Shown in pieces: positions 1 to 64,000 of a DNA stretch of 64,000 bases. The notes below the pieces were generated by a model. The model was not told the origin of the DNA. It saw only the letters and a program-made list of their open reading frames with translations, and searched no databases. The stretch lies in the IMG/VR virus record IMGVR_UViG_3300045988_099661, positions 1,698-65,697 of that record; one strand, 5' to 3'. The translations under genes were made by a program, and so were the position numbers. Every line of letters begins with the position of its first letter. The stretch's first letter is position 1. The DNA is from a virus.

Positions 1-3000
1 AAGCAAATCGCGCATCTCTGGGTGCTTTGTGAGATACTTGCCCAGCGCCTCTGCTGCTTTCGGATTGCTTTCCGCAAACTTTTCAGCAATGGCATTGTAA
101 GCGTTCTCGCGCTCGCCCAGTTCCTTGGATTCATTGACAAGAATGTTATCGGTAATTACACGCTCAACATCTTCGTCGTCCTTAGATTTAACAGGTTTAG
201 AAGTTTCTTCTTCGCCGCTGTGGTCGCCAAATAAACTTTCGAGAATATCTATGTCGCCTATGCCTTGGTCAATACCGCTTTTTTCCCACACGCTAAGCTT
301 ATATTCTTTCTTCTTCGGCTTTTCTACTTGCTCAGCCTCGCCGTTTTCCCCTTCACCTTTGTCGTCGCCGGTTTTTGCTTTGACAGGTTCTTCAGATTGT
401 TTGTTTTGTACTGGATTTTCGGAGCCTTTGTCGTCACCTTTGCTCCCCGTCCCGTTCTTATCAGTTTCATTGGTTTTGCCTCCGTTGTTGTCATCGCCAC
501 CTTTGTCAGCAGCAGCGGTATTCTCCGCTTCCCCTGCGCCGTCTTTGGCAATAGACTCTTTAGCCGCTTCTGCGCTATCAAAATCATGCCATTCGTCTAT
601 ACCTTTGCCCATTTTACGTACCTTCTTTGCTTTTTCGTTCAGAAGGTATTTTACACCGCCGTCGGCAGATTTGTAAATAGGCAAGCCATACATCGTACCA
701 TCATGCTTCTTGTCGCCGAGCGCTTCGTCAGCGGGAGCCGTTTCTCTTTTTTTGTTTACGAGCGCATCAACTTCTGAATCATCAAGCGGTTGTTGCGGTC
801 TTGACTCTTGTGCAGTCTGAGCCTTCTTGCCCTTTACCGCCTTTGCGGGAGCTTTATCTTCTCCCTCGCCTAGAGCTGCGCGTCTTGCCCTGTCTATAAG
901 TGCAAACTGTTCAATCTTTTTCAGCTCTCTAAGCTGTGCCCTCGCTTCCTCATCGCCGTTCATAGCGCGAGTACCCAAGCCATCGTACTCGCTGTTGTTC
1001 AACGCTGCTTTTGCAGTCCTGTTCTTGTCGAAAGCGCCATCGCGGATAATGCCAGTTGCCGGGTCTACATGCTTATCTTTTATGCTTTTCGGGACAGTAT
1101 TGTTGATAGCAATAGCTTCCGCTCTAGCCCAATTGTCGCCGCGCAGTTTGCCACGCTCTTCGTCGGCTCTACGAGCGACTTCCTTTTTTACGCCTCTTGG
1201 AATCTTGATTTTCAAGCTCTCGGCAGCGCTTATAAGGTCTTGTATGTTATCACCGCCAGCGATACCGGCGTAGCGAGCCGCGTCTTCATCTGTAAGCTTG
1301 ATTGCACCTTCACCTTTATTCTTGGCAATACGGTCTACGGTCTTACGCAGATTCATAATATGGTCATCGAATGAAGGAGCGGCGGTAGTTTGCTGAGGCT
1401 GCACCGGCTGCTGAACTTGCACTGGCGGTTGCTGGGGCTGCACTTGCGGCTGTTGAACAGTAGGAATTTCACCGCCGTTAACAACGTCATCAACAGCAGA
1501 ATTGACATTATCTGTCGCTGTCTGAATCTGTTCCTCGGGTGTGGTGGCAGGAGTGACAGGCTGTTGAGTTTGCGGCGGTTCTGCCTCGTTTTGCTTGCCA
1601 TAGCCAAGCTCAATAGCCTTAGCGATAATATCTTTGTCAGAACCTTCACCGAGAATTGTATCAACCGCGTTGTACTCATCTCCAGCAGCAGCATCATTCT
1701 CAAGGTACTGTTGCAGGAAGGATTTAGCCTGCCGCGCAGTAGGAATGCCCATATCGCCTGCGTTTGAACCAGTTTTCCCCATTCTGGAAAGCACTTGGTC
1801 TGCATACTCGTTGATAGACGGTTCATCGCCTTTGCCCTGTTTGCGATTAAGTGCTTCTTCGCTGTAATTCAGTGAGCCTTCGCCTGCGTACCACGCCATA
1901 GCAGCGCCGCGTGCGCCGTACTTGTCGTAGTATTCACCGAGTTTATGACGTGCAACAATTTCTTGATTTTCTGGTGTCATGGGAGCGTCGGCAGATAAGC
2001 CAGCTTCTTGCGCCCACGCAGACCAGTTCTCTGGCATGATTTGATATTTACCGCTTGCCCCTGTACGTCCATTCACTGCGTTGTAATTGCCGCCACTTTC
2101 CTGCCCGCCGATAGCATTGATAAAGGCTTCGCGTTCGTTGTCCACGCTCGTCACATCTACGCCCGGAGCAGGAGTTGTGCCAGCGTCGCTAGGAGTAACA
2201 TTAGTGTTTGCGCTTCCCGGGCCATAACTATCGTACATATTAGCAACGCCCGCAGGTACGCCGCCTGTCAAGCCGCCGACCAAACCAGACAGCAGTATAT
2301 CGGGGTCAGTCAAGCTCCAATCTTGCCCGGATTCCATCTTCGGAATAATCTGCTGCCCCATTTCCTGCACAGAGTTGATGCCGCCGCCGACACCCATAGC
2401 CGTCGCTGCCTTTTTGAGCTTGCCTGCTTTTTTGCCACCAAGAATCTGAATCAGAGCATCCTGCATAGTGTCGGTGCCAGTAATAAACATCAAGTTGTCG
2501 GTGAGCACGCCTTTAGCTACCTGCTCTGCTTCCTGTTCGGTAACGCCCGGCACATAAGTGCCATTACGCTTAGCATTGTCAATATAATCAAGTTTGCCAC
2601 TGGTTACGCTTTCCAGCACTGCTTCTGGCAAAGCTTGTTTCTGGCCAAGTTCGAGGTTCGCAATAATCGGAGCCATATATTTGGGAGCATTGGCAGCTAC
2701 GGTCTCACCATACTTTCCAGAAATCTTACTAAGGAATGGAGCCAGCCTAGTAGCCATGGCAGAAGCGCTAACGTTCGCCGCAGCTTGTTCTCCGACAGTA
2801 GGAGCGCCGACCCTTGCGCTTAGTCCTAAACCAATAGCATAAGGAATAACGCTTGCTGCGGCGTTAGCAATAGACGCTGCGCTAAACGGGTCAGAATAAG
2901 AACGGGCCTGAGCATCCTCTACCTCTTTGCCAAATTCTTCGATTTTTTTGTTAGTTCGATTAGTAAAGGCACGTAAGCCACCATCGGCCTGCATCTGCTT

Positions 3001-3231
3001 ATCCCATTCTTCCTCTGTTAGATAGGCAGGTTTGCCCGCATAATTTAACAGGTTGCCGCCTGCTCTGATTACGCTGCCTGTCGCTCCTGCTACGCCGTGA
3101 TAAGCTGCGCTTAGGATTCCGTCGTCGTCGTTGTTTTTTTCCGGTTCTGGCGCGTAATCATCAAGCCACGAAAAATCATATACAGGCCGCTCGTTATTCA
3201 AATCCGGGAAGTTATATTTATTGTTAGCCAT
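1..3231 (-). CDS. Large virion-associated (internal/ejection-type) protein with a central lytic transglycosylase-like domain. The 3' end runs off the window (>=1077 aa).
   Basis: Not in the supplied ORF track because there is no stop codon in the window. I read every plus-strand triplet from 1 to 3231 in this frame and found no tta/cta/tca. The ATG at 3231-3229 is preceded by GGAGG. The motif AIGGQESGGNYNAVNGRTGASGKYQIMPENW (about nt 1790-2050) is an SLT/lysozyme-like signature. A Q/P-rich linker and an acidic C-terminal part follow. Confidence 0.8.
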   Translation of the reverse strand, partial: MANNKYNFPDLNNERPVYDFSWLDDYAPEPEKNNDDDGILSAAYHGVAGATGSVIRAGGNLLNYAGKPAYLTEEEWDKQMQADGGLRAFTNRTNKKIEEFGKEVEDAQARSYSDPFSAASIANAAASVIPYAIGLGLSARVGAPTVGEQAAANVSASAMATRLAPFLSKISGKYGETVAANAPKYMAPIIANLELGQKQALPEAVLESVTSGKLDYIDNAKRNGTYVPGVTEQEAEQVAKGVLTDNLMFITGTDTMQDALIQILGGKKAGKLKKAATAMGVGGGINSVQEMGQQIIPKMESGQDWSLTDPDILLSGLVGGLTGGVPAGVANMYDSYGPGSANTNVTPSDAGTTPAPGVDVTSVDNEREAFINAIGGQESGGNYNAVNGRTGASGKYQIMPENWSAWAQEAGLSADAPMTPENQEIVARHKLGEYYDKYGARGAAMAWYAGEGSLNYSEEALNRKQGKGDEPSINEYADQVLSRMGKTGSNAGDMGIPTARQAKSFLQQYLENDAAAGDEYNAVDTILGEGSDKDIIAKAIELGYGKQNEAEPPQTQQPVTPATTPEEQIQTATDNVNSAVDDVVNGGEIPTVQQPQVQPQQPPVQVQQPVQPQQTTAAPSFDDHIMNLRKTVDRIAKNKGEGAIKLTDEDAARYAGIAGGDNIQDLISAAESLKIKIPRGVKKEVARRADEERGKLRGDNWARAEAIAINNTVPKSIKDKHVDPATGIIRDGAFDKNRTAKAALNNSEYDGLGTRAMNGDEEARAQLRELKKIEQFALIDRARRAALGEGEDKAPAKAVKGKKAQTAQESRPQQPLDDSEVDALVNKKRETAPADEALGDKKHDGTMYGLPIYKSADGGVKYLLNEKAKKVRKMGKGIDEWHDFDSAEAAKESIAKDGAGEAENTAAADKGGDDNNGGKTNETDKNGTGSKGDDKGSENPVQNKQSEEPVKAKTGDDKGEGENGEAEQVEKPKKKEYKLSVWEKSGIDQGIGDIDILESLFGDHSGEEETSKPVKSKDDEDVERVITDNILVNESKELGERENAYNAIAEKFAESNPKAAEALGKYLTKHPEMRDLL

Positions 3232-12973: not shown

Positions 12974-12983
12974 AAGCAAAATA

Positions 12984-28989: not shown

Positions 28990-29076
28990 GCGCAAACGCA
29001 GGGCATCACTTCGGTGGTGTCTTGCAGGGGTAGCTTAAAACTCCCAAATATTTCAAAAAAGGTGGAATGTATATGT
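28985..29076 (+). repeat. 92-bp cassette junction element, copy B
   Basis: Identical to 27999-28090 by direct comparison of the printed sequence. Confidence 0.95.
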
Positions 29077-29612: not shown

Positions 29613-29702
29613 GTGCAAACCCAGCGTCCTACGCAGAGCTTAGGGCGTTGGAGGGGTAGCTTAACAACTCCCGAAAATATTTTTAAAAGGTGGTAATGTA
29701 TT

Positions 29703-30029: not shown

Positions 30030-30046
30030 GTACGGAGGAGTAAATT

Positions 30047-30301: not shown

Positions 30302-30394
30302 TTCAGTCTATTTGCAGGGCATCGGCAACTTGTCGGTGTCTTGCAGGAGTGATTGAACACTCAAACTTAATTTTTTTGAAAGGTGGTAATTGTA

Positions 30395-43109: not shown

Positions 43110-43700
43110 CTAGCCGCCCTGGCGTGCGTCTGGGAGGAATTTGCCCATTACGGTTCCGATACTCGTCAGCTCGTTTGCCTTTTTCCTCGGTTTCGGCTTT
43201 GATGCTCCGAGGATTCCGACAGGGTTTTTCCCTAGGGCGTATTCGTTCTTAGCTTGCTTTTTGCTTCTTGCGCAGGCGTCTTCGTAGAACCTGCGCATCT
43301 GCGCTCTTACCGCTGGCATATCAGCCGCCAGCACTCTTTGCAACTCGTTCCAGCCGAAGCTGTTGACCGCCTGCGCTATTTCTGGTCTGCTAAACTGCGG
43401 CTGCTTCCCCCACGGTGTTGACTGCATAAAGCGCTGGATTTCTCCCCACGCCTCGTCCCAATCCTTGACTCTCAGGTCTTCGTTTACTGCATCATTGAGC
43501 AGTTCGCACTGCCCTAGCAGCTCTGCTACGCTAGGCAAGAATTTGCACTCTCTGATGCTCTTCTTGACCGCCAGCATCAACAATGTCGGCGGCACATCTG
43601 CCAACATCAAGCGATATATTGCTATCTGTTGTGCGTCATTCGCTCGCCCATACGCCCCAAACAGCAGCGTCAAAGTCTCGCTTAGCGTCACTTTCTGCAC
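43110..43700 (-). CDS. Replication accessory protein (G39P-like helicase-loader pattern), 196 aa
   Basis: Lies directly after the replisome-organiser gene. The N-terminus LFGAYGRANDAQQIAIYRLMLADVPPTLLMLAVKKSIRECKFLPSVAELL resembles SPP1 G39P-type proteins. Confidence 0.4.
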   Translation of the reverse strand: MQKVTLSETLTLLFGAYGRANDAQQIAIYRLMLADVPPTLLMLAVKKSIRECKFLPSVAELLGQCELLNDAVNEDLRVKDWDEAWGEIQRFMQSTPWGKQPQFSRPEIAQAVNSFGWNELQRVLAADMPAVRAQMRRFYEDACARSKKQAKNEYALGKNPVGILGASKPKPRKKANELTSIGTVMGKFLPDARQGG

Positions 43701-44610
43701 CCCCCTGTGCTAAAATCTCGTCAACCTCCGCAGCTACTTCTTTCAAGTCCCTGTTGCCGCGGCCGCCACCTCCGCTCTGCGCCTGCTTAGACCTCCGCGG
43801 CCTGTCGTTGCCGCTGTGGATATTCTTGCAACACCCCTCGACATACGCTAAGGTGCGCTTGCCTTGCTCTAACGAGCGCTGCATCGCCTCCAACACCACA
43901 GGCTCGCTGTAGTCAGCAATCATGGCTTGAATCTTCTCGGCGATATACCCCGTCAAGGCCCCCATGTTGGAATTCCAAAACCTAAAAGGGTTATCGGTCT
44001 TGTCAACAACGACAAGAGAATGTTCGCTGAGCGAATCACGGTAGTTACTAGATAAACCTACGGTAGCAGTATTCTGGTTCTTGTTCTTCTCTAACTCTAT
44101 CTCTTTCTCTTTCTCTTCTCTATCTCTACGTAACGCAGGTGTAACAACATCGTAACTATCGCGTAACATTGTTACGCTTTCACCTGCTTTTTTACGGTTT
44201 CGCATATCCCGCATACGGCTTGCTGCCGCGGTTTCGGAGCCAATCGCCTCTGCTGCTTTCGGCAGAGAAACGTCGCTCTCGCATTCAGACTCTACCAGCA
44301 AATTGTGTTTGCGCAAAAACGCCACCGTGACCGATACATTCTCTTCGTCCTCGTCAATGTCCAAAGCCAAGTTCTCTATGAACTCGCTCTCCGGGCAGTC
44401 ATAAGCTATATGCCCTTCGTTTTTCAACGACAACAACATCATCTTGAGGTAAATAACCGTGTAAGTGTCGCCGCCAGCAATCTTACGCAGCTTCTTGATT
44501 TCAACTTGGCGAAAAAAGTCCTCTTTCAGTTTAAGCCACCAGTATCTTTTGCCCAAAATAGCAGCCCCCTTCTTATTGCTTGCTTTCTGTATCCTTAGAA
44601 CAGATGTCAT
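43636..44610 (-). CDS. Phage replisome organiser (N-terminal organiser domain plus a DnaD-like C-terminal part)
   Basis: KRYWWLKLKEDFFRQVEIKKLRKIAGGDTYTVIYLKMMLLSLKNEGHIAYD is the replisome-organiser N-domain pattern. The true start may be the TTG at 44556, which has GAAGGGGG upstream. Confidence 0.7.
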   Translation of the reverse strand: MTSVLRIQKASNKKGAAILGKRYWWLKLKEDFFRQVEIKKLRKIAGGDTYTVIYLKMMLLSLKNEGHIAYDCPESEFIENLALDIDEDEENVSVTVAFLRKHNLLVESECESDVSLPKAAEAIGSETAAASRMRDMRNRKKAGESVTMLRDSYDVVTPALRRDREEKEKEIELEKNKNQNTATVGLSSNYRDSLSEHSLVVVDKTDNPFRFWNSNMGALTGYIAEKIQAMIADYSEPVVLEAMQRSLEQGKRTLAYVEGCCKNIHSGNDRPRRSKQAQSGGGGRGNRDLKEVAAEVDEILAQGGAESDAKRDFDAAVWGVWASE

Positions 44611-45268: not shown

Positions 45269-46210
45269 TTATTTGCCTTCTACGGCAGCCTCAATTTCAT
45301 CTGCGGTGAACATTGCATCCGCAGGCGTTTCAACCGCTCCTGCGGCTTCCTGCGTGCTCTCGGGGAGCTGTTCTAACGGCGATGCCTCAATAATCGGAGT
45401 GTCTTCGTCGTCGAGTGTACCCTGTGCAATCTGCTCTGCCATTTTTAAGGTGTCGGCAGTAGCAGTACGATAGTCGATAGACATAACGCCCCAGCGGCCA
45501 ATCAGCTCGCGCAGGATAGTTTTGCGTGCCATAGCGTCGAAGTTGCTACTCCAAACCGGGTTCATGTATTTACCTTTGCGGTGCTTCTGTTCGTGTCTTC
45601 TGATTTTAGGCACAGACCAGTAAATGTACTTCTCCATGCCGTTCACGGTGCGGAAGAAGCCGCAGTAACCGATAACCGGTGTTTCCTCGCGAGTATCTTC
45701 GTCCTCGATAAATTCAAGCTCAATATCCTCGGTCAAAGGATTCCAGCGTTTCAGCTCGCCATCGCGAATATCGACAACATTGAGCTTAGTGTAGATGCCG
45801 GTACGCATCGCCATTTGGTACATGCCCTTATAGCCGAGCATGAAGCTCGCTTCCATGCGATACTTGCCATCTTCTTGTTTGTTTTTAAAAGGCACGATGT
45901 AGGCATATCCTAAAGCCGGGTCGACAGGCAAATCGTAGGTTGCCGCTTTCAGACCTGCTTGAATAACGCTCATGGGAGCATTCGTGAAGGCTTCGCGCAT
46001 CTGCGGTGAAGCATTGATAAGACTTACAATGGAGCCTACAAACTGCGGCGCTCTTTTGCCGAGCAGCTCATGAAAACGATTCTTCATACCGCTGCTGTCC
46101 ATCATCTCATTCATGATGGTTGCTAATGATTTGTTAGCAACCTGTTGTTGTGCCTGTACCTGTCCTTCCTGCTGTTTCTTGGCCAGCAGACCGCCTTTTA
46201 CTGTTGCCAT
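45269..46210 (-). CDS. recT: RecT-family single-strand annealing recombinase
   Basis: SVIQAGLKAATYDLPVDPALGYAYIVPFKN...MLGYKGMYQMAMRTG. It is paired with the exonuclease gene upstream. Confidence 0.9.
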   Translation of the reverse strand: MATVKGGLLAKKQQEGQVQAQQQVANKSLATIMNEMMDSSGMKNRFHELLGKRAPQFVGSIVSLINASPQMREAFTNAPMSVIQAGLKAATYDLPVDPALGYAYIVPFKNKQEDGKYRMEASFMLGYKGMYQMAMRTGIYTKLNVVDIRDGELKRWNPLTEDIELEFIEDEDTREETPVIGYCGFFRTVNGMEKYIYWSVPKIRRHEQKHRKGKYMNPVWSSNFDAMARKTILRELIGRWGVMSIDYRTATADTLKMAEQIAQGTLDDEDTPIIEASPLEQLPESTQEAAGAVETPADAMFTADEIEAAVEGK

Positions 46211-46211
46211 A

Positions 46212-47213
46212 TTATTCTTCTCCTTCTGCTTCCTTAGCTCTGCGTTTCTTGGCTGCTTTCGTCAAAGCAACACGGAGCTGTCTATACTGTCCAGTTCTAG
46301 TATAGGTTTTCACGAGGTCTGGATAATCCACCGCGAAAGCCTTTGAATCAAAGGTGTTGCGTGTGCTTACACCATAGCTGACTTTATAATCGCCACATTC
46401 GCCTGTCTCGAAATTTCCAAGCTCAAGGCGAAGCTTATTCTTCTTTTCGTCAATGAAGCCTTGAAGCTGTTTAATCTGCGCTTCCATCTCTTTGATGGTG
46501 TTGCATACCGCTTCCCACTCGCCACCCATCTGCATGGGTTCCTTTTCGCCACCGGGATAGATTTTCTCAATGAGCTTCTTGCAGTTATCAGAAGCATCTA
46601 CCTCGGGGATAGCTTTTGTGACTACGAAGTCGTTCCAGAATTTGCCTTCCTCTTCGATGAGTATGGCAATGTCTTCGTCGTTACGAGCCACTTCGCGGAC
46701 TACCGCTTTCTGTCCGCCAAGCAAGCAGACCACGTAGCACTTATCATAGCCGCCTACGGCCATGTAATGTTGGATTTGGCAGTAGTATGAGTCGGGGAGC
46801 TTGTCATCTGCCCACTCATCTTTATTGAATGCCGACGTAGTTTTGATTTCCGCGATGGCGTTCTCACCAACCACGAGGCGGTCAATGTCGGCGAACATGA
46901 AGGGGTACTCGTTGTTACGGACCATGCCGCAACGGCGAAGCTTCTTGCCTGTCTTGGCCTCAAACCAATCTGCAATGACGGGTTCCATTCTCGTACCCCA
47001 GTCCATGCGCTCAGCCTGCTCTTCCGTCAGCTCCTGCTCACCTGCCTGTCCTGTCTTTTCCATCCAGAGCTGGAAGCGGTTCTTCCACGGATTGACGCCG
47101 ACTATCACGCCAGCGTCACTACCGCCGATACCATTTTTTCTTAATTCAAGCCACTTCTCGCGGCCGCCCTCCGCCTGCATCTCGGCGGACGTCATAAGCA
47201 TTGTTACACTCAT
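46212..47213 (-). CDS. YqaJ/lambda-Exo-like recombination exonuclease
   Basis: RKNGIGGSDAGVIVGVNPWKNRFQLWMEKTG, plus PD-(D/E)XK-type blocks (FADIDRLV...AIAEIKT). Confidence 0.9.
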   Translation of the reverse strand: MSVTMLMTSAEMQAEGGREKWLELRKNGIGGSDAGVIVGVNPWKNRFQLWMEKTGQAGEQELTEEQAERMDWGTRMEPVIADWFEAKTGKKLRRCGMVRNNEYPFMFADIDRLVVGENAIAEIKTTSAFNKDEWADDKLPDSYYCQIQHYMAVGGYDKCYVVCLLGGQKAVVREVARNDEDIAILIEEEGKFWNDFVVTKAIPEVDASDNCKKLIEKIYPGGEKEPMQMGGEWEAVCNTIKEMEAQIKQLQGFIDEKKNKLRLELGNFETGECGDYKVSYGVSTRNTFDSKAFAVDYPDLVKTYTRTGQYRQLRVALTKAAKKRRAKEAEGEE

Positions 47214-52365: not shown

Positions 52366-53508
52366 ATGCCTAAATACGGAGAGGGTTCTGTTTATTTTGA
52401 AACCTCAAGGAACAAATGGCACGCTTCCGTCGTCGACCAGCAAGGGCGCAGGACGCACAAAAGGTTTAACACGAAAGAAGAAGCGAACGCTTGGCGCTTG
52501 AGCACGACGGCGAAATATATCAAAGGCGATTATGTTGCGAAGAGCAACATAACTCTCGGCACATGGGTTTTGCAGTACCTCGGCGTGTTCGCCAAGCCTA
52601 AAGTGAGAGAAAAGACATTCCTGGACTACGCCAATACCGCTGCGCATATCAACGAAGAATTGGCGGATGTAGAACTGCAAAAGCTAACGCCCCTAGCGGT
52701 TCAAGCCTATATTAACACCGCAGAAATGACAGAGGGCATGAAGGATAGAGTGGTAAAGCTGCTTTGCCGTGCGTCTAAAAAAGCTATTGCGACAGGGCTT
52801 ATAGAGAAAGACTTCATGGCAGGCGTGGAAGTGCTCAAGCCAGAACCTAAAGAGGTCGAGATATTCTCTCCCGAAGAGCTGAGTATAATCATGAAAACCA
52901 TTGACAGCGACGCAAGACTTCGTAGGCATCATCTGCTCGTTTCCGTTGCTATCGCTTCCGGCTGTCGCATGGGAGAGATATTAGCCCTAACACCGCAGGA
53001 TTTAGACGGAGATGCCATAAAAATCAACAAGAGTTTAGTAGAGGTCAAGGGCGTAGCAAAGCTTCAGCCGCCAAAGACGAGGGCAGGGTATAGGCGAATC
53101 CCTTTGCCGAAGAATATAATGGCGGAGCTTTATCAAGCAGCATATGCTCTCGAAAGCGGTGAAATCATTAAGAATGCCAACGGCAAGCCATGCCTGTCTA
53201 CAAACATTGACAAGTCGTGGAAGCGAATTTTAAATAAGGCTGGAATTCCATACAGGAAATTCCATTGCCTGCGCCATACTCATGCGTCAATGCTGCTTGC
53301 TGCCGGTGTGCCTATATTGGAAGTTTCCAAGCGTCTTGGGCACTCTCGCCCTAGCCACACATTGAATCTCTACGGGCACGCCATCCCCGGCTACGACAGC
53401 CAGATGCCTTCACTTGTAGAAAAAGTTTTCAACATAGGAAATTGCAACAAAGAAACCATTTCTGCCGTATCTTGTCCCGTTTTACCCCAGACTACCCAAA
53501 AAAGTTGA
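52366..53508 (+). CDS. int: Tyrosine recombinase/integrase
   Basis: The C-terminal catalytic region reads RMGEILAL...HCLRHTHASMLLAAGVPILEVSKRLGHSRPSHTLNLYGH (R..H-x-x-R..Y). Confidence 0.95.
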   Translation: MPKYGEGSVYFETSRNKWHASVVDQQGRRTHKRFNTKEEANAWRLSTTAKYIKGDYVAKSNITLGTWVLQYLGVFAKPKVREKTFLDYANTAAHINEELADVELQKLTPLAVQAYINTAEMTEGMKDRVVKLLCRASKKAIATGLIEKDFMAGVEVLKPEPKEVEIFSPEELSIIMKTIDSDARLRRHHLLVSVAIASGCRMGEILALTPQDLDGDAIKINKSLVEVKGVAKLQPPKTRAGYRRIPLPKNIMAELYQAAYALESGEIIKNANGKPCLSTNIDKSWKRILNKAGIPYRKFHCLRHTHASMLLAAGVPILEVSKRLGHSRPSHTLNLYGHAIPGYDSQMPSLVEKVFNIGNCNKETISAVSCPVLPQTTQKS

Positions 53509-55539: not shown

Positions 55540-56064
55540 TCAATGCAGTCTATACCATTCAGCGTTGCCGCGAATGGTCTGCATCTTTTCATAAAGCTTT
55601 CTACCAGGACAAGCAGTCGCCATAAGGTCTCTGTGCCCTACCACGACGTTTTTTGCCGCCGTCAGGTTGTAGATATTGCACAGCTCGCCAATGAGCGCAG
55701 AGAGGCTGTTAAGCTGCTCTGGCGTGGGGCGTGCAATCTCGAAGTTACCACACACATGGATGCCGATTGTATCTCGGTTGCGTCCGTAAGCGTGCGCTCC
55801 CACGGCCCATCTAGGTCTGCCTCGCTCGATTGTGCCGTCCTTGCGGATGACATAATGGTAGCCGATGCCAGCCCAGCCTTGCGCCTTATGAGAGGCGTGA
55901 ATCTCCGCCGCCGACAGGTCATCGTCCGTCGGATTGCCTGTATGATGCACCACAATCATATTGGTGCTCTGACGCTCATTTAAGCCGTCAAAATCAAGGT
56001 GTGTTTCTTTAACAATTACCTTCGCCGTTTTCATCACGCTCCTTGTCGTCTTTTTTGTCCTCAA
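55540..56064 (-). CDS. Endolysin: N-acetylmuramoyl-L-alanine amidase (Amidase_2/PGRP type), 174 aa, with no recognisable wall-binding domain
   Basis: MIVVHHTGNPTDDDLSAAEIHASHKAQGWAGIGYHYVIRKDGTIERGRPRWAVGAHAYGRNRDTIGIHVCGNFE. Confidence 0.9.
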   Translation of the reverse strand: MRTKKTTRSVMKTAKVIVKETHLDFDGLNERQSTNMIVVHHTGNPTDDDLSAAEIHASHKAQGWAGIGYHYVIRKDGTIERGRPRWAVGAHAYGRNRDTIGIHVCGNFEIARPTPEQLNSLSALIGELCNIYNLTAAKNVVVGHRDLMATACPGRKLYEKMQTIRGNAEWYRLH

Positions 56065-56356
56065 ATTTGTCGGGAACGCCGTTGCCGTTTACGTCGACAA
56101 AGCAGCCTGCAATGAAGGTCACAAAACCTATCATAGCAGGACCAATCATCTCTTGGATTACCGCCAGCAAGTCGCCCATCACAATCTTGCCGTAGTAGGC
56201 CTGCCAGCACCACGCACCGTAGTATGTCAGCACCAGCAGTACAACTAAAGCAAAATAGGACACTATCATCCATTTGATAGGCGACTGCATATCATTAATC
56301 CTGTTCTTGGCTATATCTAAATATTTCCCGACATAGCCTTTAATCTTGTTCCACAT
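56009..56356 (-). CDS. Holin-like membrane protein, 115 aa
   Basis: Two hydrophobic segments (WMIVSYFALVVLLVLTYYGAWCW and MIGPAMIGFVTFIAGCFV) and a charged C-terminus. It overlaps the endolysin start. Confidence 0.6.
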   Translation of the reverse strand: MWNKIKGYVGKYLDIAKNRINDMQSPIKWMIVSYFALVVLLVLTYYGAWCWQAYYGKIVMGDLLAVIQEMIGPAMIGFVTFIAGCFVDVNGNGVPDKFEDKKDDKERDENGEGNC

Positions 56357-56359
56357 AAG

Positions 56360-56647
56360 CTATTCACCGCCTTTACTGCCGCCGCAGTGACAGCATTTAC
56401 GCAGTTCGTCCAGCTCTTCTTTAAGCTCTTTGTAGCGGTGCCAAAGGCTGTCAAGCTGCTGGTCTACCTTGCCCTGCTCGATACGCATTTCGTTGATAAG
56501 CCCTGCCAGTTCCTTTAGCGCATTTGTATTGTTATCAATGCTTTGGTGCAAGGATTGACTATCCTGCCTGTGCATATATACAACGATACATACCGCTGCC
56601 AGCGCAGGGCCGCTCACAATCATACTAAGAACCTCTTCTAATCCCAT
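56360..56647 (-). CDS. Lysis-associated membrane/coiled-coil protein, 95 aa
   Basis: N-terminal TM segment (MIVSGPALAAVCIVVYM), then a coiled coil. The architecture is XhlA-like. Confidence 0.45.
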   Translation of the reverse strand: MGLEEVLSMIVSGPALAAVCIVVYMHRQDSQSLHQSIDNNTNALKELAGLINEMRIEQGKVDQQLDSLWHRYKELKEELDELRKCCHCGGSKGGE

Positions 56648-56663
56648 AGTTACCTCTTATAGA

Positions 56664-56720
56664 AAAAATTAAAGTATAGTTACGGAATTTCGACCATTTT
56701 CCGCAACTATACTTTTTTAT
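56664..56720 (-). terminator. Strong intrinsic terminator between the giant gene and the lysis cassette
   Basis: The long stem AAAGTATAGTTACGG...CCGCAACTATACTTT is followed on the minus strand by AATTTTTTC. Confidence 0.7.
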
Positions 56721-56755
56721 ATTTACCGTGACGGTTGCCACGGCTCCCCGACTAA

Positions 56756-59700
56756 TTAGTCATCATCAAGCAGCGGATTGCCCGCAAACTCTTTCTTTTG
56801 TTTTTTGTTCAAGGTTTGCTTCATGCGCTCGCTAGTGCTCATCTGCATATCTTTGACAGCCTTTCTAAGCTGTGAGCCTGTAACGCCAGCCTTACGCAGC
56901 TTAGTGAGTTCCTCGTCCGTCAGTTTGATGCCATCGGCGCGTTTCCTTGCAGCTTCCATGAGCAGTTTCTGGCGAGCGTCTTTGCTTCTCTGCTTATCTG
57001 TGTAGAGCGCAGAGGTCATATCTGCTTCCACGCTTTGCCCAACAGGTCTAAAGCCCATAGATTTAAGGTATCGTTCTGTGCCTTTATACTTGTAAGACAC
57101 CTGCCCCTTGCTGTTAGTGCTATAACCTCTCACTGCTTCGGCAATATTGCCAAGAGCAGGGTTTAAAGCCTTTGTCGCTTTAATATAATCGCCGGACGCA
57201 GCACTGTTAATGCCGTTCCACGCCACGCTTCCAGCAGGGCCAAGAGCATAGCCCAGCAGCGAATCGCTATCCGGGAACATTCCGCCCATGCCCACGCGAC
57301 GTGAAATGTCAATTCCGAGGTTCGAGAAAATGCCATAGATAATTGTTCTAGTCACTGGGGTGTCTCCCATGTGTTTAAACAATTCCTCTTTCAAAACAGT
57401 TGACGGTTTATAGCCTAACCATTTTTCGAGAAGTTCGTCCAGCCAGTCGCCGCCCGGTAAGCCAGCGAAGCCTGCCATCAGAAAATACGTTGCCCAGAAA
57501 CGAGCCTTTTGCGCTTTCGTGCCTTTGCCGAAGTATGGGATAAGTGAACGCATCAGCTCCCATTCTTTCATGGGGTATTTTTGGAACAGCAGAGCCAAAT
57601 CGCCGAACACCGTGCCGCTAATCATCTGGTTTACGCCCGGAGCATCAGCAGCGCCGTAGTCGAAGTTGGCTTCGCGGTTTATCTTTTTCGCGTAAGCAAT
57701 AGCCTGTTTATGCGTCATGCCTTCGTCGATGGCTTGATAATAAGCGCCGAGAGTGGTTACTTTTCTCGTAATCTCGTCTGCTTTCTTGAAAAGGAACATG
57801 CCTTTTTCGCCAGCCGCATTGACGTAATCCTTAATCTGCTGGAATGAGCTTTCTTTTCGTCCCTCAATAGCATTTCTGCGTTTGGAGAAACCGCTCGGAG
57901 TATCAAGTCCAATGTTATAAGGTACGCCTGCTTCGGCAAGGATTTTTCTATCCGTCATGTTCATGCGTTTTGCCGCCTGCATACCAGTACCGGTATAACT
58001 GCCAATCAAACCATAAGTATTTACGAGCTGTGTTACACCTACGAGAGCGGATGAAATATTGAGGCAGCCAAGCAGGTTCTTACTCAAAAAGCCATTGATT
58101 CTGCTCGCCAACGCAACACCGAGTCTATCGCCGTACTCTGCGTTAACATGCTTTACAATCCAGTCATTTTTAGCAAGTGTAGTGTTTATAACTTGCTCCA
58201 GATAATTCGGCGTGCCATTGTTGTAGCGCATATAGCGTTTAATGATATTAGCCATGGCTTCTTTACCGCCATACTCTTTGTCGAATCGTCCGAAGGTTCT
58301 CTCAAACAGCTTAGTTGCCTTGCTCTTGGCTGGCTGCAACGCGCAGTAACGGGACGACGACAGCAAGTATCTGTCAATCGTCGTAATAACGTCGGAGTTA
58401 TAGCCTACCCTGCCTTTTCTATGTGCAAGGTTGCCGAAGAATCTGTTACGAGCCGTGCGGCTCACAGCTCCCTCCAGCACCTTGCGTGCTTCGGGCACGC
58501 TCATTTTTGCATTGTCTACGAGCGCTCGTTGCAAGCGGATATATTCAGCGTCGCTGACAACCAGCGAGCCTTTGCCGCCTTTTGCGTCCTCGCCGCCACC
58601 AAGTACATTGTTAGCGTCGAACAGTTTCGGCGCAATCTGGAAGTCGATTTTGTCACCGCCGTTCTTTTGTAGCATCTCCGCAACCTTATAGGCTTCTTTT
58701 AATGTTTTGCCGCTGCCGACAGGGACAAGTCCCTCTTCCGTCCTGGCCAGCACCATCCACTGCTCGTAAAGGTGCGGCAAGTAGCCGGTAATCTTACCGA
58801 TTGGCGGCACTGTGCGTTTCACCTTTGCTTCAAAATACGTTGCGCCATCTTCTCCGCCGATGTGCTTCTGCACAATGTTTGTAACCTGCGCATAAGGGCT
58901 GTTTTGCAATTCTTTGAGCTGCTCTGCGGTGAGCTGTTCTTTCGCTGCGCTAGTATAAACCTTCGGCTTGTCATAGCGCACTTCATACTCGCCGCCAGAA
59001 GCGACGTTGACTTCTTTAAGCAGCTTCCATTTTGTAAATTCTTCACCGTTAGCCTGCCATTTGACTGCAACTTGAATGTTCTCCAAGAACGGCTCTTTTG
59101 CGAGCTTCTTGAGTTCGTTGCCACTGACGGTTTCGTGAATATGTTCCAGCCCCCTGTGAGCGTCGTTGACAGCCTCCCAGACGTTGCGGATAAGCTGACG
59201 GGTACGAGAATATGCGTTGCGTACATTTTTGTTGTAGCCAGCGTCCTTGAGCTGTTGCAAAGTGTATTCTTTTTGCTCCATCTCGCCTGTCATCATAAGT
59301 TCGACAAAGTTATTCATATCCTCTGCTGATTTCAGCTCGGTGATAGAAGTTTGGAACTGCTTGCGCCATCTAGCACGAAGTTTCTCCTGTGTCTCCTGTG
59401 CCTTGCTATAAATCTTGTAGAAGCTGTTGAAAACTGGGTTCTTCTCCGCTAAACGGCTTGGACTACGCACGAGCATGTCGGCAATCCCGGCAGCCTTGTC
59501 TTTCGCGGCCTGTGCCATAGTCTTATGCTTAACAGTGATTTCGCCAGCCTCTGCTCCTGCTTTGTCGGCAAATTTATTCGCTTCTTCAAGCACCGCTTTC
59601 AAGTCGTCCGGCAAGGCTTTGCCGTTTACTTCGTCGACTGGAGTAAGCTTAAAGTGCATCTCGCCGTTGGGCTGCTCTTCGGGAGAATAAGAATCATCCG

Positions 59701-62700
59701 TTTCTATATACGGATTTTTTTCATAATCCTTGACACCTTGCAGCATATCGTTTATACTGATGCTATCGAACCCCTCACGGTCTGCCCGATAAGGAGCAAC
59801 TTTTGCTCCGTTGGCAGAGTGGGGGGTTCTTTCTATTACTACGTCGTAAAGATTGACGTTAGTAGGGTCTAGAGTAATATCTCCGTTTTGTTCCTCGGCC
59901 ACCAATCTTACAGTGTAAATTTTCCCATTAACCCTAACAGGGACATAGAACCGATGATAAGCTCTTACTTTGGGCTTGTCATCGGTTTTTCTATTCGGGA
60001 CGCTTTCGATAAGAACAGAATTTTTAATAAGGTCGCCAATATTAGCGATGCTATTATCACGCACCTTGTATTCTCTTGGGCGCATGTTTTTGTCACTAGA
60101 GTATGTAAGGTGATTTACATCTTTCGGCAATATTGACATAACAGCCTTCTTGTCAGCTGTATTGAAAGAATCATCTTGTTCAATCAATTGTTTGATGTAT
60201 GGTTTTAACTCTTTAGCATTGCGAATATCCTTAGGCAGCAAATTATCTATGCTAACCACATTGACCATTTTATTTAAATCCACATCTTTATTAAGCGCAA
60301 GGGCTTTAATTTCGCCAACACCCATTGCTTCTTCTCCTGTTCGGTTGAACATCTTGCCGCTTCTCGTCGCAAGGTAAATGCCGTGCGGAGTGTGCAAGCC
60401 GATTTTATCCAACATCTGCGCCAGCAGTTTTTGTACCTTCCAAAGAATTTTCTTGGCGATATTATTGATTGTCAGCGGAGCTTTTGCAGTTTCTTTGTCA
60501 TACTTGACGAAAGCTGCATACTGGTCAGCGATAAGCTCCTCGCAACGGTCATTGAGTGTCTGTTCAGAGAGCTTATTGAACGCCTCTTCGCCCATCTCTC
60601 GCTTCAAGCGCCACTTATAATAACGCATGAGGTCTTCACGTTCTTTGCTTGTCAACAGTACATTGAAAACAAAGTGCATGGTTTCATGGTCGAGAGTGCC
60701 ATCCTTGACCGCCTCAGTCAAACGAATCATATCCACGATGCCGCCGTTACGCAGCTCTCTGTTATAAAAGCCTTGAATCTCGAAGCCGGAGCCTTTGATG
60801 TTAGCAGCATTCAACATGCGTCGTTTTTGCTCATCGCTCATCTTCGCCAGCACCGCTGCCTGCGAAGTGTTAGTGTCAAGCCAAAGGTTTCTGCCGTTCC
60901 ACAAAGTCGCCACATACACACCGTCAGCCACTTCTATAACTTCCTTAGCATGTACTGCTTCCTCAAAAGCCTTTTTAAATCTACCCTTGTTCTGCGGAGT
61001 AAGAATCTCTTTGCGCTTCGCCGCATCTTCTGCGGCTGCGGCGTTTTCTTTCGCTGCTCTTTCATCAGCCTTTTCCTGTTCGTTTAATCTCTCGGCGGCT
61101 GCCTTAAAGCGAATGTCGCCAGAAGCGTTTGCTGCATTGCTAAACTCAATCAGTGCTTCTTTTCTCGACAGGCTATCTTTAGCTTTGCCCCCGGTGCTTT
61201 CCTCGTCGGTAGCATAGTTCACTGTTCTTACGCCTTCTGTTCCGCTGAGGACGACCTGCATGAAGCCGCTTTGAAAAGCAATGTCCAATGCGCGAGCGTC
61301 AGTACCGAGCGCGATGTTTTCTGCTGTCTTGGAGCGAGTGGCAATCTTGTCATAGAAAGCTGTTTGCTCCATAATGGAATTGGTTGCAAGGTATCTGAAC
61401 ATAGCGTTCGACTTGCTGCCATAGCGATAAATGCGTCCCTCAATCTGGATAGCGGCAGTAGGTCTTACGGGCATACCTAAATTAATCAGCACGCGAGGAT
61501 GTACGCCAGTTGTGTCGTGTAAAGAGATGCCTTCCTGCCCCGCAGAAGATGTTACCATGATTAAGTCAACGCCGCTGTTGTCATCGTTAAATTCTTTGAC
61601 AGCACGTGCTCTATCGGCTTTCTTCTCTTGTCCGTTGATATAACGAGCCTTGTCGCCAAAAGCGTTCCTGATAATTGTCACAGGGTTAGACTCTTGAGAA
61701 ATTTCAAACTCCACAAGCTCCGGATGCTCCTTTTGGAACAACTCGTAAGCCTGCTTTTGCTCAGTAGTCAGTTCTTTAAGTACGCTTTTAGACAATACAA
61801 ACGGTTTGGTATTCGCGCTGCTGATTCTGTCGTGGAACAATACAACCTTTTTGCCGCGAGAGATATAAGATTTAATCATATCCACGGCAGCTTTAGCTTT
61901 GATGGATTCCAGCACATAAGACTGCGCATTGGAGTCGAAGCTTTTTCTGAACATATCGCCTAAGTTTACGTTGACACGCATTCCATCAATCACTATGTTG
62001 CCGTACGTTCTATCAATCATATCGTAACCATCCTCAATCTTTTTGATGGTTCCGTCATCATCGACTTTAATAAACTGACGGTTATAGTCTTTGTCGATTT
62101 CCAGACGGCGGCTAATCATCGCTCCGCTATTGACCAACATGTCATGGAATTTGATTTCGTTGATAGAGTTATCCGCAATCAATCCGTTGGTATCTCGGCG
62201 AGGTTTAATTTTACCCGTAGAAGTCACGATAAAGCCAAACACTCTCGTCAAGAAACCGCCTGCGCTGCCGCCGTATTTGGAGTCGGCGTAGTCGAACAGC
62301 AAGCCTTCTCCATAGAATGCGTTCTGCGGATAAGCAAAAGGCGTTGCAGATAAAAGCAATACCTTGGAGTCACGGCTTTCCATAAGCTTATCGTACTTAG
62401 GCTTCTCTTTCTTTCTTGCCTCAAAAATCTTGGCAGTAAGTGCTTTGTTCTCAGCAGTAAGCCTAGCAAGTTTCTCTTTCTGTTTCTTGAGCTGCGGAAC
62501 AGATTCAATAACCGCCGGAGGTGTGTCGTCTAAAACGTTTTCGAGCTTCTTGATTTCTTCGTCGTTGGCTTTACGTTTCGTAAAAAGGTCTTGGTACTTT
62601 ATGCGGATATAGCCGTCAAAACCATCTGCTTTATGTCCGAACAAGCCACGCAAAGCCAACGCCGCAATGCCTTTATCCTCAAGTGTACCAATGTCGCTAC

Positions 62701-63946
62701 GTCCCGAGCCGCTAATGATATGGTGCGCTTCGTCGCAAAGAATCAAATCCCAATTTTTACCTTGGATTTCTTTGTTGCTTGTCAGAGCAGCATAGGTGAT
62801 GATATTGGGCACGGCTTTAACGGGTTTGCCGTTAGTAATACGTGCCATATTGTCGATTTGCAAAAGACTGCTGCCAGTCTTTGCCCAAGCGTTACCAATC
62901 TCTGCGCTTGGCACGACGATAAGAATATTCTTTTTCCCTTGCAGCAAAAAACGCTTGATAGCTCCTAAGCCAACAAGCGTTTTACCAGTACCTGTACCAT
63001 TTGCCACAAGGATGCCTACTTTATTTTTACCGAAAAAGCGGTCTTCTACCGCCAGCACATCCTGCTGCTGTTCGGGCAATAAAACAGGTAGCGTCTCGGC
63101 GATATTCGCCTTATCCGCTACCTTGATTGGTACTCCATCTTTAATTTCTCTTTGCTTTGCTAATCGTTCGTTAGCTTCATCAGCGGTGTTTTTGCTCTCA
63201 TTCGGCGAAGATACAGCGTTAGAAGCCCCTTCTCCACGTTTGTCAGATACGGATTGTCCGCTTCCATCAGCGCCACTGCTTCTTCCACCGTCAAGATTTC
63301 TGGCGCCGCGTTCCGCAGAATCGGAAACTTCTGAGCTGCCTTGCTGATTGCCTCGTGTTCCGCCAGCAACGGGCCTACTTCCGTGAACATCCTCGCTGCC
63401 GTCTCCGCTTGGCTCTCTACGCCCCTGCTCACGAACGCCTGCGCTTGCTTCTGAATTTTCGCCTTGGCTCTGTACCTTGCTTCCGCCGACGGCAGAGACA
63501 GGCTCTCCTTCCACGCCGTTTTCAGCCCTGCGTCCACTATTGCTTTCAGTAGCGGTTCCGGTAGTTCGTATAGGCTCATTGTTTCCACCTCCGTTAATCT
63601 CTTTTAGTAATTCTATCACGTTAGCATCGTTTTGTCTAGGGTAATACTTGAGACCTGCAAACGCAGCGTCAATGTAGTCTTTAATTCCTTCCAACAACGC
63701 AGGCTGGCGTTGTTGAAGCATCTTTTTGAAAGCAGAAGGAGTAATATTTTTGTCTACCGCCGCGCCTGCATAGAATAATGCCTGCCTACGTTTATCGGCC
63801 TCTGCTCCCTTGGACTCCAATTTTACATTATCGGGCAATTTCAATAAGAAAGTATGAGCAGCTCTGAGCATTTCTTGCGCAAAGCGCAGCATACGAGAGC
63901 CGGATTCACTGGCTCTCGCTGCTGCGCTTTCTAATAATTGTTTCAT
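56756..63946 (-). CDS. Giant polyvalent virion-type protein: disordered G/S/E-rich region, SF2 (SNF2/DEAH-type) helicase, HExxH segment and a large alpha-helical C-terminal region. >=2396 aa; 5' boundary unresolved.
   Basis: Helicase motif I is LVANGTGTGKT (about 62975-63003) and motif II is LILCDEAHH (about 62722-62736). Motifs V/VI are SSAGQEGISLHD and QIEGRIYRYGS (about 61418-61450). HETMH lies at aa 1087-1091 (60674-60688). The same frame has no stop from 63947 to 64000 and the SD before the ATG at 63946 is poor, so the ORF may start beyond the window. Confidence 0.8.
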   Translation of the reverse strand: MKQLLESAAARASESGSRMLRFAQEMLRAAHTFLLKLPDNVKLESKGAEADKRRQALFYAGAAVDKNITPSAFKKMLQQRQPALLEGIKDYIDAAFAGLKYYPRQNDANVIELLKEINGGGNNEPIRTTGTATESNSGRRAENGVEGEPVSAVGGSKVQSQGENSEASAGVREQGRREPSGDGSEDVHGSRPVAGGTRGNQQGSSEVSDSAERGARNLDGGRSSGADGSGQSVSDKRGEGASNAVSSPNESKNTADEANERLAKQREIKDGVPIKVADKANIAETLPVLLPEQQQDVLAVEDRFFGKNKVGILVANGTGTGKTLVGLGAIKRFLLQGKKNILIVVPSAEIGNAWAKTGSSLLQIDNMARITNGKPVKAVPNIITYAALTSNKEIQGKNWDLILCDEAHHIISGSGRSDIGTLEDKGIAALALRGLFGHKADGFDGYIRIKYQDLFTKRKANDEEIKKLENVLDDTPPAVIESVPQLKKQKEKLARLTAENKALTAKIFEARKKEKPKYDKLMESRDSKVLLLSATPFAYPQNAFYGEGLLFDYADSKYGGSAGGFLTRVFGFIVTSTGKIKPRRDTNGLIADNSINEIKFHDMLVNSGAMISRRLEIDKDYNRQFIKVDDDGTIKKIEDGYDMIDRTYGNIVIDGMRVNVNLGDMFRKSFDSNAQSYVLESIKAKAAVDMIKSYISRGKKVVLFHDRISSANTKPFVLSKSVLKELTTEQKQAYELFQKEHPELVEFEISQESNPVTIIRNAFGDKARYINGQEKKADRARAVKEFNDDNSGVDLIMVTSSAGQEGISLHDTTGVHPRVLINLGMPVRPTAAIQIEGRIYRYGSKSNAMFRYLATNSIMEQTAFYDKIATRSKTAENIALGTDARALDIAFQSGFMQVVLSGTEGVRTVNYATDEESTGGKAKDSLSRKEALIEFSNAANASGDIRFKAAAERLNEQEKADERAAKENAAAAEDAAKRKEILTPQNKGRFKKAFEEAVHAKEVIEVADGVYVATLWNGRNLWLDTNTSQAAVLAKMSDEQKRRMLNAANIKGSGFEIQGFYNRELRNGGIVDMIRLTEAVKDGTLDHETMHFVFNVLLTSKEREDLMRYYKWRLKREMGEEAFNKLSEQTLNDRCEELIADQYAAFVKYDKETAKAPLTINNIAKKILWKVQKLLAQMLDKIGLHTPHGIYLATRSGKMFNRTGEEAMGVGEIKALALNKDVDLNKMVNVVSIDNLLPKDIRNAKELKPYIKQLIEQDDSFNTADKKAVMSILPKDVNHLTYSSDKNMRPREYKVRDNSIANIGDLIKNSVLIESVPNRKTDDKPKVRAYHRFYVPVRVNGKIYTVRLVAEEQNGDITLDPTNVNLYDVVIERTPHSANGAKVAPYRADREGFDSISINDMLQGVKDYEKNPYIETDDSYSPEEQPNGEMHFKLTPVDEVNGKALPDDLKAVLEEANKFADKAGAEAGEITVKHKTMAQAAKDKAAGIADMLVRSPSRLAEKNPVFNSFYKIYSKAQETQEKLRARWRKQFQTSITELKSAEDMNNFVELMMTGEMEQKEYTLQQLKDAGYNKNVRNAYSRTRQLIRNVWEAVNDAHRGLEHIHETVSGNELKKLAKEPFLENIQVAVKWQANGEEFTKWKLLKEVNVASGGEYEVRYDKPKVYTSAAKEQLTAEQLKELQNSPYAQVTNIVQKHIGGEDGATYFEAKVKRTVPPIGKITGYLPHLYEQWMVLARTEEGLVPVGSGKTLKEAYKVAEMLQKNGGDKIDFQIAPKLFDANNVLGGGEDAKGGKGSLVVSDAEYIRLQRALVDNAKMSVPEARKVLEGAVSRTARNRFFGNLAHRKGRVGYNSDVITTIDRYLLSSSRYCALQPAKSKATKLFERTFGRFDKEYGGKEAMANIIKRYMRYNNGTPNYLEQVINTTLAKNDWIVKHVNAEYGDRLGVALASRINGFLSKNLLGCLNISSALVGVTQLVNTYGLIGSYTGTGMQAAKRMNMTDRKILAEAGVPYNIGLDTPSGFSKRRNAIEGRKESSFQQIKDYVNAAGEKGMFLFKKADEITRKVTTLGAYYQAIDEGMTHKQAIAYAKKINREANFDYGAADAPGVNQMISGTVFGDLALLFQKYPMKEWELMRSLIPYFGKGTKAQKARFWATYFLMAGFAGLPGGDWLDELLEKWLGYKPSTVLKEELFKHMGDTPVTRTIIYGIFSNLGIDISRRVGMGGMFPDSDSLLGYALGPAGSVAWNGINSAASGDYIKATKALNPALGNIAEAVRGYSTNSKGQVSYKYKGTERYLKSMGFRPVGQSVEADMTSALYTDKQRSKDARQKLLMEAARKRADGIKLTDEELTKLRKAGVTGSQLRKAVKDMQMSTSERMKQTLNKKQKKEFAGNPLLDDD

Positions 63947-64000
63947 TCGTCCTGCCCAGGCTCTAAACAGCTCTTTCCCTCTGCCGATTTGGTCAAGAAC

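Follow-up and report, generated by a model that had tools for sequence, protein, structure and literature searches.

Polyvalent proteins, as catalogued by Iyer, Burroughs, Anand, de Souza and Aravind in 2017 (PMC5512222), join several unrelated modules in one giant polypeptide that is encoded in the neighbourhood of phage structural genes, and LPD3, SWI2/SNF2 ATPases, lytic transglycosylases and zincin-like peptidases are among these modules. Giant polyvalent virion proteins fill about one-fifth of the genome in several podophage groups. In Klebsiella phage vB_KpnP_ZX1 (Lastavirus), a 495-kDa 'PLxRFG protein' with no known role takes up 19% of the genome (PMC9505181), and mass spectrometry of CsCl-purified virions of phage JC1 recovered 51 unique peptides of its gp69 (4,515 amino acids, aa), in a paper that also cites Gill et al., who had earlier examined Bcep22 virions by mass spectrometry (PMC9144972). 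A search of the literature returned no tested mechanism for giants that combine a lytic transglycosylase (SLT), a helicase and a conserved tail, and the LASTA/SJM3 paper does not discuss the giant protein. Here, we analysed a stretch of viral DNA of 64,000 nucleotides (nt), positions 1,698 to 65,697 of IMG/VR record IMGVR_UViG_3300045988_099661 (hereafter the window), in which a single minus-strand gene combining these modules occupies 18% of the genome. Its product is probably a phage-type polyvalent protein of the 'DarB-like/PLxRFG' giant class, presumably packaged into virions and directed against host defences. The class as such is known; what is new is that the host is a Negativicute, that the methylase is absent, that the HExxH module is rare and that one cassette is exchanged in a very clean manner. 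With this member, the class reaches a phage whose host, a Firmicute with two membranes, commonly inhabits the human gut.

A preliminary description of this DNA had reported the gene as an open reading frame (ORF) of at least 2,396 aa at the window edge, starting with an ATG at 63946, and had noted that the protein might extend beyond the window. The minus-strand frame is real and remains open as a single frame of 2,414 codons from position 64000 to the TAA at 56758-56756; it spans only about 60% of the gene, which re-enters at the other end of the window, where the same strand is open for 1,083 codons as far as the edge. There, the ATG at 3231-3229 is the true start, behind a Shine-Dalgarno sequence and the stop codon (3252-3250) of an upstream 444-aa gene, and 1,077 codons run from it past window position 1. 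A database search with the previously described fragment returned full-length homologues of 4,007-4,017 aa with 97% identity across the entire query, including P0001 (4,009 aa), which matches both end fragments (Table 1). In an integrated copy, L001, the giant gene is uninterrupted: window position 1 corresponds to L001 position 13249 and window position 64000 to L001 position 14777, and the N-terminal part of the window gene shares 93% DNA identity with nt 1-3249 of the L001 gene. Because both end fragments match one homologue and the L001 gene is continuous, we read the window as a circular phage genome that was linearised by a cut inside the giant gene. Comparison with L001 puts the gene portion outside the window at about 1,527 nt (509 codons); the full protein would be about 4,010 aa long with a mass of about 440 kDa, and the replicon would measure about 65.5 kb.

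The ATG at 63946 turned out to be an internal methionine, which the ORF lister had given because it is the first start codon inside the window edge, and when the 2,396-aa product was searched for by exact identity, there was no match because that ORF is not the real gene. What had been taken for a helical N-terminal part lies in the middle of the protein, and the 40% of the gene that had been missed includes the SLT domain. Linearised circular contigs are able to conceal 40% of such a giant gene. A megablast search of the locus against GenBank phages gave no match. A comparable case is phage Itty13 (NC_070969), in which a 630-aa 'DarB-like' protein (42-1934) at the end of the linear record aligns with the C-terminal part of the PLxRFG tail only; as in the window, the two ends of the record probably each hold a portion of the giant gene.

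Table 1 Features of the giant gene and its surroundings in the window. Residue numbers here and in the text follow homologue P0001; fragment residues are counted along the frame from 64000 to 56756.
Feature	Position	Strand	Basis
N-terminal 1,077 codons of the giant gene	1..3231	minus	95% identical to P0001 residues 1-1078
Two moderately hydrophobic Gly/Ala-rich segments, residues 119-139 and 312-330	2242..2877	minus	Kyte-Doolittle
SLT lytic transglycosylase, residues 365-459	1855..2139	minus	Pfam on P0001 and motif
Shine-Dalgarno sequence GGAGG, 7 nt 5' of the true start codon	3239..3243	minus	Sequence reading
C-terminal 2,414 codons and stop of the giant gene	56756..64000	minus	97% identity to residues 1605-4009 of P0001
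G/S/E/R-rich low-complexity linker, fragment residues ~121-265	63206..63640	minus	Composition
SF2 helicase/translocase, SNF2/ResIII type, residues 1911-2484	61334..63082	minus	Pfam and motifs
Lineage-specific HExxH module, residues ~2594-2815 (HETMH at 60688-60674)	60344..61006	minus	Conservation and AlphaFold2
Exchangeable cassette, here LPD3, residues 2835-3008 (Pfam match 59882-60214)	59762..60283	minus	Pfam
Conserved C-terminal region of ~1,000 aa, residues 3009-4009	56759..59761	minus	HMM match 56813-58429
Intrinsic-terminator-like 17-bp hairpin and U-run, after the giant gene	56661..56715	minus	RNA fold
Lysis cassette	55540..56647	minus	PHROG, Pfam, hydropathy
95-aa protein, one transmembrane segment, putative holin	56360-56647	minus	Hydropathy
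115-aa protein, two transmembrane segments, putative holin	56009-56356	minus	Hydropathy
Amidase_2 endolysin	55540-56064	minus	PHROG amidase E 5e-42; Pfam Amidase_2 E 1.2e-25
Tyrosine integrase	52366-53508	plus	Family scan

Two Gly/Ala-rich segments with 19-residue Kyte-Doolittle means of 1.44 and 1.60 lie near the N-terminus and may insert into a membrane. They precede the SLT domain (PF01464), which was detected in a scan of the 95%-identical P0001 with an E-value of 3.3e-7 and 30.3 bits against a cut-off of 21.3. The translation of the window carries the corresponding catalytic-type motif GGQES...GKYQIM...AWYAGEG, and a PHROG transglycosylase family matches the window fragment. The G/S/E/R-rich disordered region mentioned in the preliminary description could be located ahead of the helicase, as a linker in which G, S, E, R, N and D together make up 0.57-0.78 of 40-residue windows.

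The superfamily 2 (SF2) helicase previously recognised by its motifs GTGKT, DEAH and QxxGRxxR is real. Both Pfam ResIII (E 4.5e-14) and Helicase_C (E 4.2e-8) exceed their curated cut-offs, with weak additional matches to SNF2-rel and Helicase_C_4 (Strawberry-notch C-terminal), and motifs I, II, III and VI were located on the minus strand (GTGKT, 62992-62978; DEAH, 62734-62723; SAT, 62350-62342; QIEGRIYR, 61447-61424). A long coiled-coil insert lies between the two RecA-like lobes, as also described for the SNF2 ATPases of polyvalent proteins (PMC5512222). The best PDB relatives by family profile were SNF2/Rad54 (1z63, E 1e-3) and RapA.

No methylase was visible, in agreement with the preliminary description: Pfam scans of the full-length P0001 (E <= 0.05) returned neither a methyltransferase nor LPD36, the methylase motif [DNS]PP[YFWH] was not found, and a full-length profile gave no methylase match in the PDB. 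This result bears on whether the protein is a true DarB orthologue, which as in P1 would block type I restriction through helicase-driven methylation of the incoming DNA in cis. The SF2 helicase and the annotation of relatives as 'DarB-like antirestriction' speak for such an orthologue, whereas the lack of a methyltransferase by Pfam, motif and PDB profile, together with the absence of P1 among the tblastn matches, makes it extremely unlikely, and the DarB methylation mechanism was rejected on the missing methylase. Since the methylase is missing, DarB-style methylation cannot give protection; the helicase might act without one, in a manner for which DarB-like proteins offer no described precedent. 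A helicase can exist without the methylase that the label 'DarB-like' implies, and the annotation 'DarB-like antirestriction' should not count as evidence of methylation-based protection.

The helicase is, apart from the SLT, the sole catalytic domain that could be assigned with confidence, and the authors of the ZX1 study suggest 'DNA metabolism' for the PLxRFG protein (PMC9505181). Both points would fit an unpackaged, late cytoplasmic helicase of DNA metabolism or recombination. This explanation nevertheless appears highly improbable, as DNA metabolism in the cytoplasm has no use for a peptidoglycan-cleaving SLT, the gene is part of the virion operon and comes after the tail genes, mass spectrometry places the equivalently positioned JC1 protein in virions, and the window encodes a separate replication and recombination module of RecT, YqaJ and a replisome organiser.

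Downstream of the helicase, the HExxH module (motif HETMH) belongs to a rare and lineage-specific family. Among 1.84 billion representative proteins scanned with HMMER, only nine clusters (50% identity) matched it; eight of the nine were strong matches (E <= 1e-50) from proteins of 1,895-4,470 aa, seven of them longer than 3,500 aa. Counted over all nine clusters, eight come from proteins exceeding 2,000 aa. With the HExxH region as the sole query, a word-indexed homology search gave two fragments only. Across ten clusters, down to 23% identity, H1105, E1106 and H1109 (fragment numbering) are invariant, and E1120 and E1155 nearly so, the latter in the context EExxADxYA. AlphaFold2 modelled the module alone with a pLDDT of 87 and a pTM of 0.86; a model of HExxH and LPD3 together was unusable (pLDDT 43). 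The order of secondary-structure elements in the model of the module (H4-18, E22-27, E30-34, E40-44, an insert, H104-117 carrying HExxH, H120-138 and H148-175) fits the zincin core, which consists of an N-terminal helix, a three-stranded sheet, the HExxH helix and a Glu helix (PMC5512222). Foldseek against viral models retrieved pieces of crAss-like giant proteins (E 1e-4 to 1e-3, the five best with a probability of 0.96-1.00), a PaBG phage protein named 'putative peptidase' (E 8.7e-4) and, only at E 0.03-0.04, SprT-like, IrrE and M34 peptidases, and hhalign aligned the module with the HEIIH module of P0123, a metagenomic giant of 5,930 aa (E 1.2e-3, probability 19%). A zincin-like peptidase is the most likely reading of the module, which we regard as a candidate member of that family. 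Of the zincin-like HETMH proposed in the preliminary description, the motif stands, being invariant in all relatives, whereas support for the zincin assignment is weak.

The more than 1,200 aa that follow had been described as helical, free of recognised motifs and uncharacterised, and were found to contain two known families: LPD3 (E 4.4e-13) and the PLxRFG tail (E 2.9e-29). The latter match, to NCBIfam NF032893 ('tail-700', PLxRFG), scores 102.1 bits against a cut-off of 100, covers profile positions 111-664 of 681 and corresponds to the last ~540 residues, ending 18 residues before the stop. Over ~650 residues, the tail aligns with those of Parlo, Skulduggery, ZX1, Atu_ph08, Itty13 and P0123. 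The tail motifs HRKGRxGY, FDYG, GIDISxRVGM and GFxP are kept, and YLP-HLYEQW stands opposite YFPLxRFGD. A profile search with the tail alignment returned mostly close relatives and added P0123 as one distant giant; no relative of solved structure was found by sequence profile.

Between the HExxH module and the tail, residues 2835-3008 form the only segment in which relatives are not collinear with the window protein. The window carries LPD3 at this site (49.9 bits against a Pfam cut-off of 27). Typing of ~130 homologues assigned 107 of them to a 155-aa cassette with a weak match to PBECR3, which is predicted to be an RNase of polyvalent proteins; at E 2.8e-4, this match stays below the curated cut-off. 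Four homologues had the same LPD3 cassette as the window and one a different LPD3, 16 had LPD23 and a second HExxH segment, and in four the slot was deleted. The PBECR3-like cassette is 99-100% identical although the helicases of its carriers range from 50% to 99% identity to that of the window, and proteins that are ~98% identical in the flanks may bear different cassettes. At the DNA level, the window and the common allele share 91% and 96% identity on the two sides, with no alignment across 59656-60340. Judged from these alignments, the cassettes are exchanged by recombination. Domain exchange between orthologous polyvalent proteins has already been described for Helicobacter prophages (PMC5512222).

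These data allow a tentative view in which the slot behind the HExxH module would be a dedicated, swappable payload site, the peptidase would free the cassette after ejection and the giant would serve as a delivery chassis for interchangeable effectors against defences or competitors. Phascolarctobacterium phages would, in this rather speculative scheme, trade LPD3, a PBECR3-like RNase, LPD23 with a second peptidase, or no cassette at all by recombination. Such payload trading would resemble the exchange of polymorphic toxin tips in bacteria. The homologues offer a natural experiment, with near-identical phages that differ by one cassette and one cassette on very different backbones, and these contrasts could help to find payload targets.

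The giant gene is the last of the virion module (terminase, portal, capsid, tail fibres) and is followed by the lysis genes and then the integrase. Its description as the last late gene before a terminator and the lysis cassette was borne out, with a hairpin and U-run, two small membrane proteins and an Amidase_2 endolysin following in this order. The fold of 56655-56760, which includes a shorter hairpin too, has a dG of -34.6 kcal/mol (z -5.4); a simple consensus scan missed the terminator hairpin because of its 11-nt loop. A second, GC-rich hairpin of 8 bp (56725-56744, minus strand) lies directly past the stop codon of the giant gene and upstream of the main terminator hairpin. With LPD3 and unrelated muralytic, helicase and HExxH modules at the end of the virion operon, the polyvalent-protein concept put forward in the preliminary description holds at the level of architecture. 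The combination of helicase and metallopeptidase, which had been called uncharacterised, is a catalogued polyvalent theme (SNF2 ATPase and zincin-like peptidase), and giants at the same position are already annotated in Bcep22-like phages, Parlo, Skulduggery, Lastavirus and Atu_ph08.

Upstream, the minus strand codes for the small and large terminase, a 746-aa portal, the capsid, tail fibres (one collagen-like) and several unassigned proteins. Portal and capsid are nearest to those of the podophages Pseudomonas tf, Vibrio VPp1 and LUZ24-like phages, at 25-30% identity, and this gene content and these nearest relatives suggest a podophage-like morphology. The ORFs scanned within the virion module or adjoining it gave no match to a tape-measure, tube or sheath family. 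A podophage-like virion without a tape-measure family is one of the points that favour a mainly structural protein, namely an ejectosome component analogous to T7 gp16 or a tape measure that would span the double envelope, with the SLT at one end, a membrane-engaging tail at the other and the helicase as a DNA-pulling motor; any action against defences would then be a side function or missing altogether. Podophage core proteins have a similar N-terminal SLT and similar hydrophobic segments, conservation across phages is highest in the tail, as expected of a structural role, and the gene is kept despite its cost of 18% of the genome. This explanation fits most of the evidence and is compatible with a polyvalent protein. 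Against it, a single site exchanges or loses LPD3, PBECR3-like and LPD23 cassettes with the frame intact, which fits the pattern of a dispensable arms-race payload and not that of a structural element, and no similarity to any solved ejection protein was detected. We regard a mainly structural role as possible but on the less probable side.

As a polyvalent protein of the DarB-like/PLxRFG class, the giant, whose gene closes the virion operon, would be synthesised late and then packaged in the capsid. Upon infection, it would be ejected ahead of or along with the DNA, and the N-terminal hydrophobic segments and the SLT would open the peptidoglycan. The PLxRFG tail, common to most giants, would most likely serve in docking to capsid or portal or in engaging the envelope or membrane. 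The SNF2-type ATPase could track the entering DNA and may strip or block host nucleases or help to draw the DNA in, and the HExxH module would act as a zincin-like self-processing peptidase. The cassette would be the released payload against defences of the host or of competitors, with LPD3 here and a PBECR3-like predicted RNase in most relatives.

Several observations weigh against this assignment. Packaging, ejection, processing and the anti-defence effect are all steps that we infer, for the window protein as for its close relatives, and 509 codons are known from homologues alone. Residues ~460-1900, about 1,400 aa that end in the G/S/E/R-rich linker, have no family match. The HExxH module has no match in Pfam, including the polyvalent peptidase models, or to PDB profiles, and a Foldseek search of its model against the PDB gave no match (best E 0.16). 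The score of the PLxRFG hidden Markov model (HMM) only just exceeds the cut-off, and the eponymous motif of the family is not kept; the literature search gave no function for LPD3 or the PLxRFG tail. Bcep22 gp75 shows no significant pairwise similarity to the window protein, and in phmmer comparisons four window proteins encoded upstream had no match (E <= 10) among 15 virion proteins of Parlo/Bcep22-type phages. This set consists of homologues of Parlo gp75, gp78 and gp80 and of an acyltransferase, which match one another with E-values of 1e-10 to 1e-180. Because the upstream virion proteins are unrelated, homology to the proteobacterial giants is restricted to modules; for the same reason, we rejected the phage as a close relative of the Bcep22 and Parlo phages.

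Relatives of the phage were found integrated and as circular contigs of ~66-68 kb. The integrated relatives adjoin genes for an M23 peptidase and dhaKL/deoC, and the DhaK encoded in the flank shares 99% identity with the Phascolarctobacterium succinatutens protein. From this flanking gene we assign the host as P. succinatutens, a Negativicute, that is, a Firmicute with an outer membrane, which is common in the human gut. A scan of species-representative genomes did not find the giant protein, and the host came from the flanking dhaK instead. With an integrase and integrated copies, the phage is temperate. Similarity of the window to the integrated L001 ends at ~53588, a prophage boundary that places the attachment site just beyond the integrase gene.

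Further features were observed in the remainder of the window. Two genes upstream of the giant gene, a 379-aa protein (4581-5720, minus strand) carries a self-splicing domain of the Hint/pretoxin-HINT type (PF07591, E 2.6e-7) at residues 245-367; this C-terminal Hint domain suggests a self-cleaving internal virion protein. The collagen-repeat tail-fibre gene (9106-11730, minus strand) encodes 814-982 aa among near-identical relatives and 278 aa in one. Between two tail-fibre genes, an odd location within the virion module, lies a gene for a 318-aa protein (12023-12979, minus strand) with a Cys/Met-metabolism pyridoxal phosphate (PLP)-dependent enzyme domain (PF01053, E 2.6e-50), which is also present in integrated and circular relatives whose loci extend there. 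On the plus strand, a gene block at 26469-31012 has GC and AT skew opposite to the remaining genome; one of its products, a protein of 509 aa, weakly matches Amidoligase_2 (E 1.7e-4), and the block may represent an accessory or moron-like module. The RecT/YqaJ-exonuclease pair and the replisome-organiser gene lie at 45269-47213 and 43636-44610, respectively, both on the minus strand. Similar early genes (RecT/YqaJ, replisome organiser) have been described in Bcep22-like phages, though their virion proteins are unrelated.

Among known systems, T7 gp16 and the core proteins of podophages, large internal virion proteins of short-tailed phages, resemble the window protein in having an N-terminal lytic transglycosylase and a gene position after the tail genes. 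T7 gp16 has 1,318 aa and lacks a helicase, a peptidase and an effector cassette. No sequence or structural similarity between T7 gp16 or other ejection proteins and the window protein was detected. For P1 DarB, likewise a large protein with an SF2 helicase, packaging into the capsid and action during DNA entry have been proposed. DarB is defined by an N6-adenine methylase, which the window protein lacks, and is itself without the SLT, the PLxRFG tail and the HExxH module that are all present here; moreover, P1 is a myovirus in which packaging depends on DarA/Hdf. The polyvalent proteins surveyed by Iyer et al. share with the window protein the presence of several unrelated modules in one giant, the repertoire of LPD3, SWI2/SNF2 ATPase and lytic transglycosylase, with the HExxH module as a candidate for their zincin-like peptidase, and the neighbourhood of structural genes, whereas their SNF2 ATPase nearly always occurs with an adenine methylase and LPD36 and stands alone here (PMC5512222).

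Closer in architecture are Bcep22 gp75 and JC1 gp69 (4,515-4,602 aa), which like the window protein have an SLT at the N-terminus, an SNF2-type helicase, LPD3 and HExxH, and whose genes close the virion module, followed by a terminator and lysis genes. Bcep22 differs by an Eco57I-type methylase and by an LPD38 C-terminus in place of the PLxRFG tail. This tail is common to the window protein and Atu_ph08 gp21, Skulduggery gp28 and the giants of Itty13 and ZX1. A central SF2 helicase with 31-36% identity to that of the window (tblastn) occurs in Parlo, Skulduggery and ZX1, and in ZX1 and Itty13 the integrase is also found past the lysis genes. In ZX1 as here, the giant gene takes up about one-fifth of a genome of ~60-65 kb (19% and 18%, respectively).

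Parlo gp81, from a Serratia phage and annotated as 'DarB-like antirestriction', has an SLT at its N-terminus by Pfam, as here, and shares helicase (36% identity over 856 aa) and tail (20%, E 1e-6) in the same order. It carries a methyltransferase and LPD39, in contrast to the window protein with LPD3 and no methylase. Downstream of the helicase, the giants of Parlo, Bcep22, Skulduggery and ZX1 have a module of the form LLHE[AL]FH...EE[LF]GAY; compared with the Parlo/Lastavirus type, the HExxH module of the window protein belongs to a different and far rarer sequence family, the PLxRFG motif is replaced by PHLYEQ and ~360 extra residues lie ahead of the SLT. The order of virion proteins, giant and lysis genes is annotated in Parlo (3,764 aa), Bcep22 (4,602 aa) and Skulduggery. 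Both this position, as the last virion-module gene before lysis, and the shared order of SLT, SF2 helicase, HExxH, LPD domain and tail hold for the window, in a phage whose host is a Negativicute and not, as for the Parlo/Lastavirus type, a proteobacterium.

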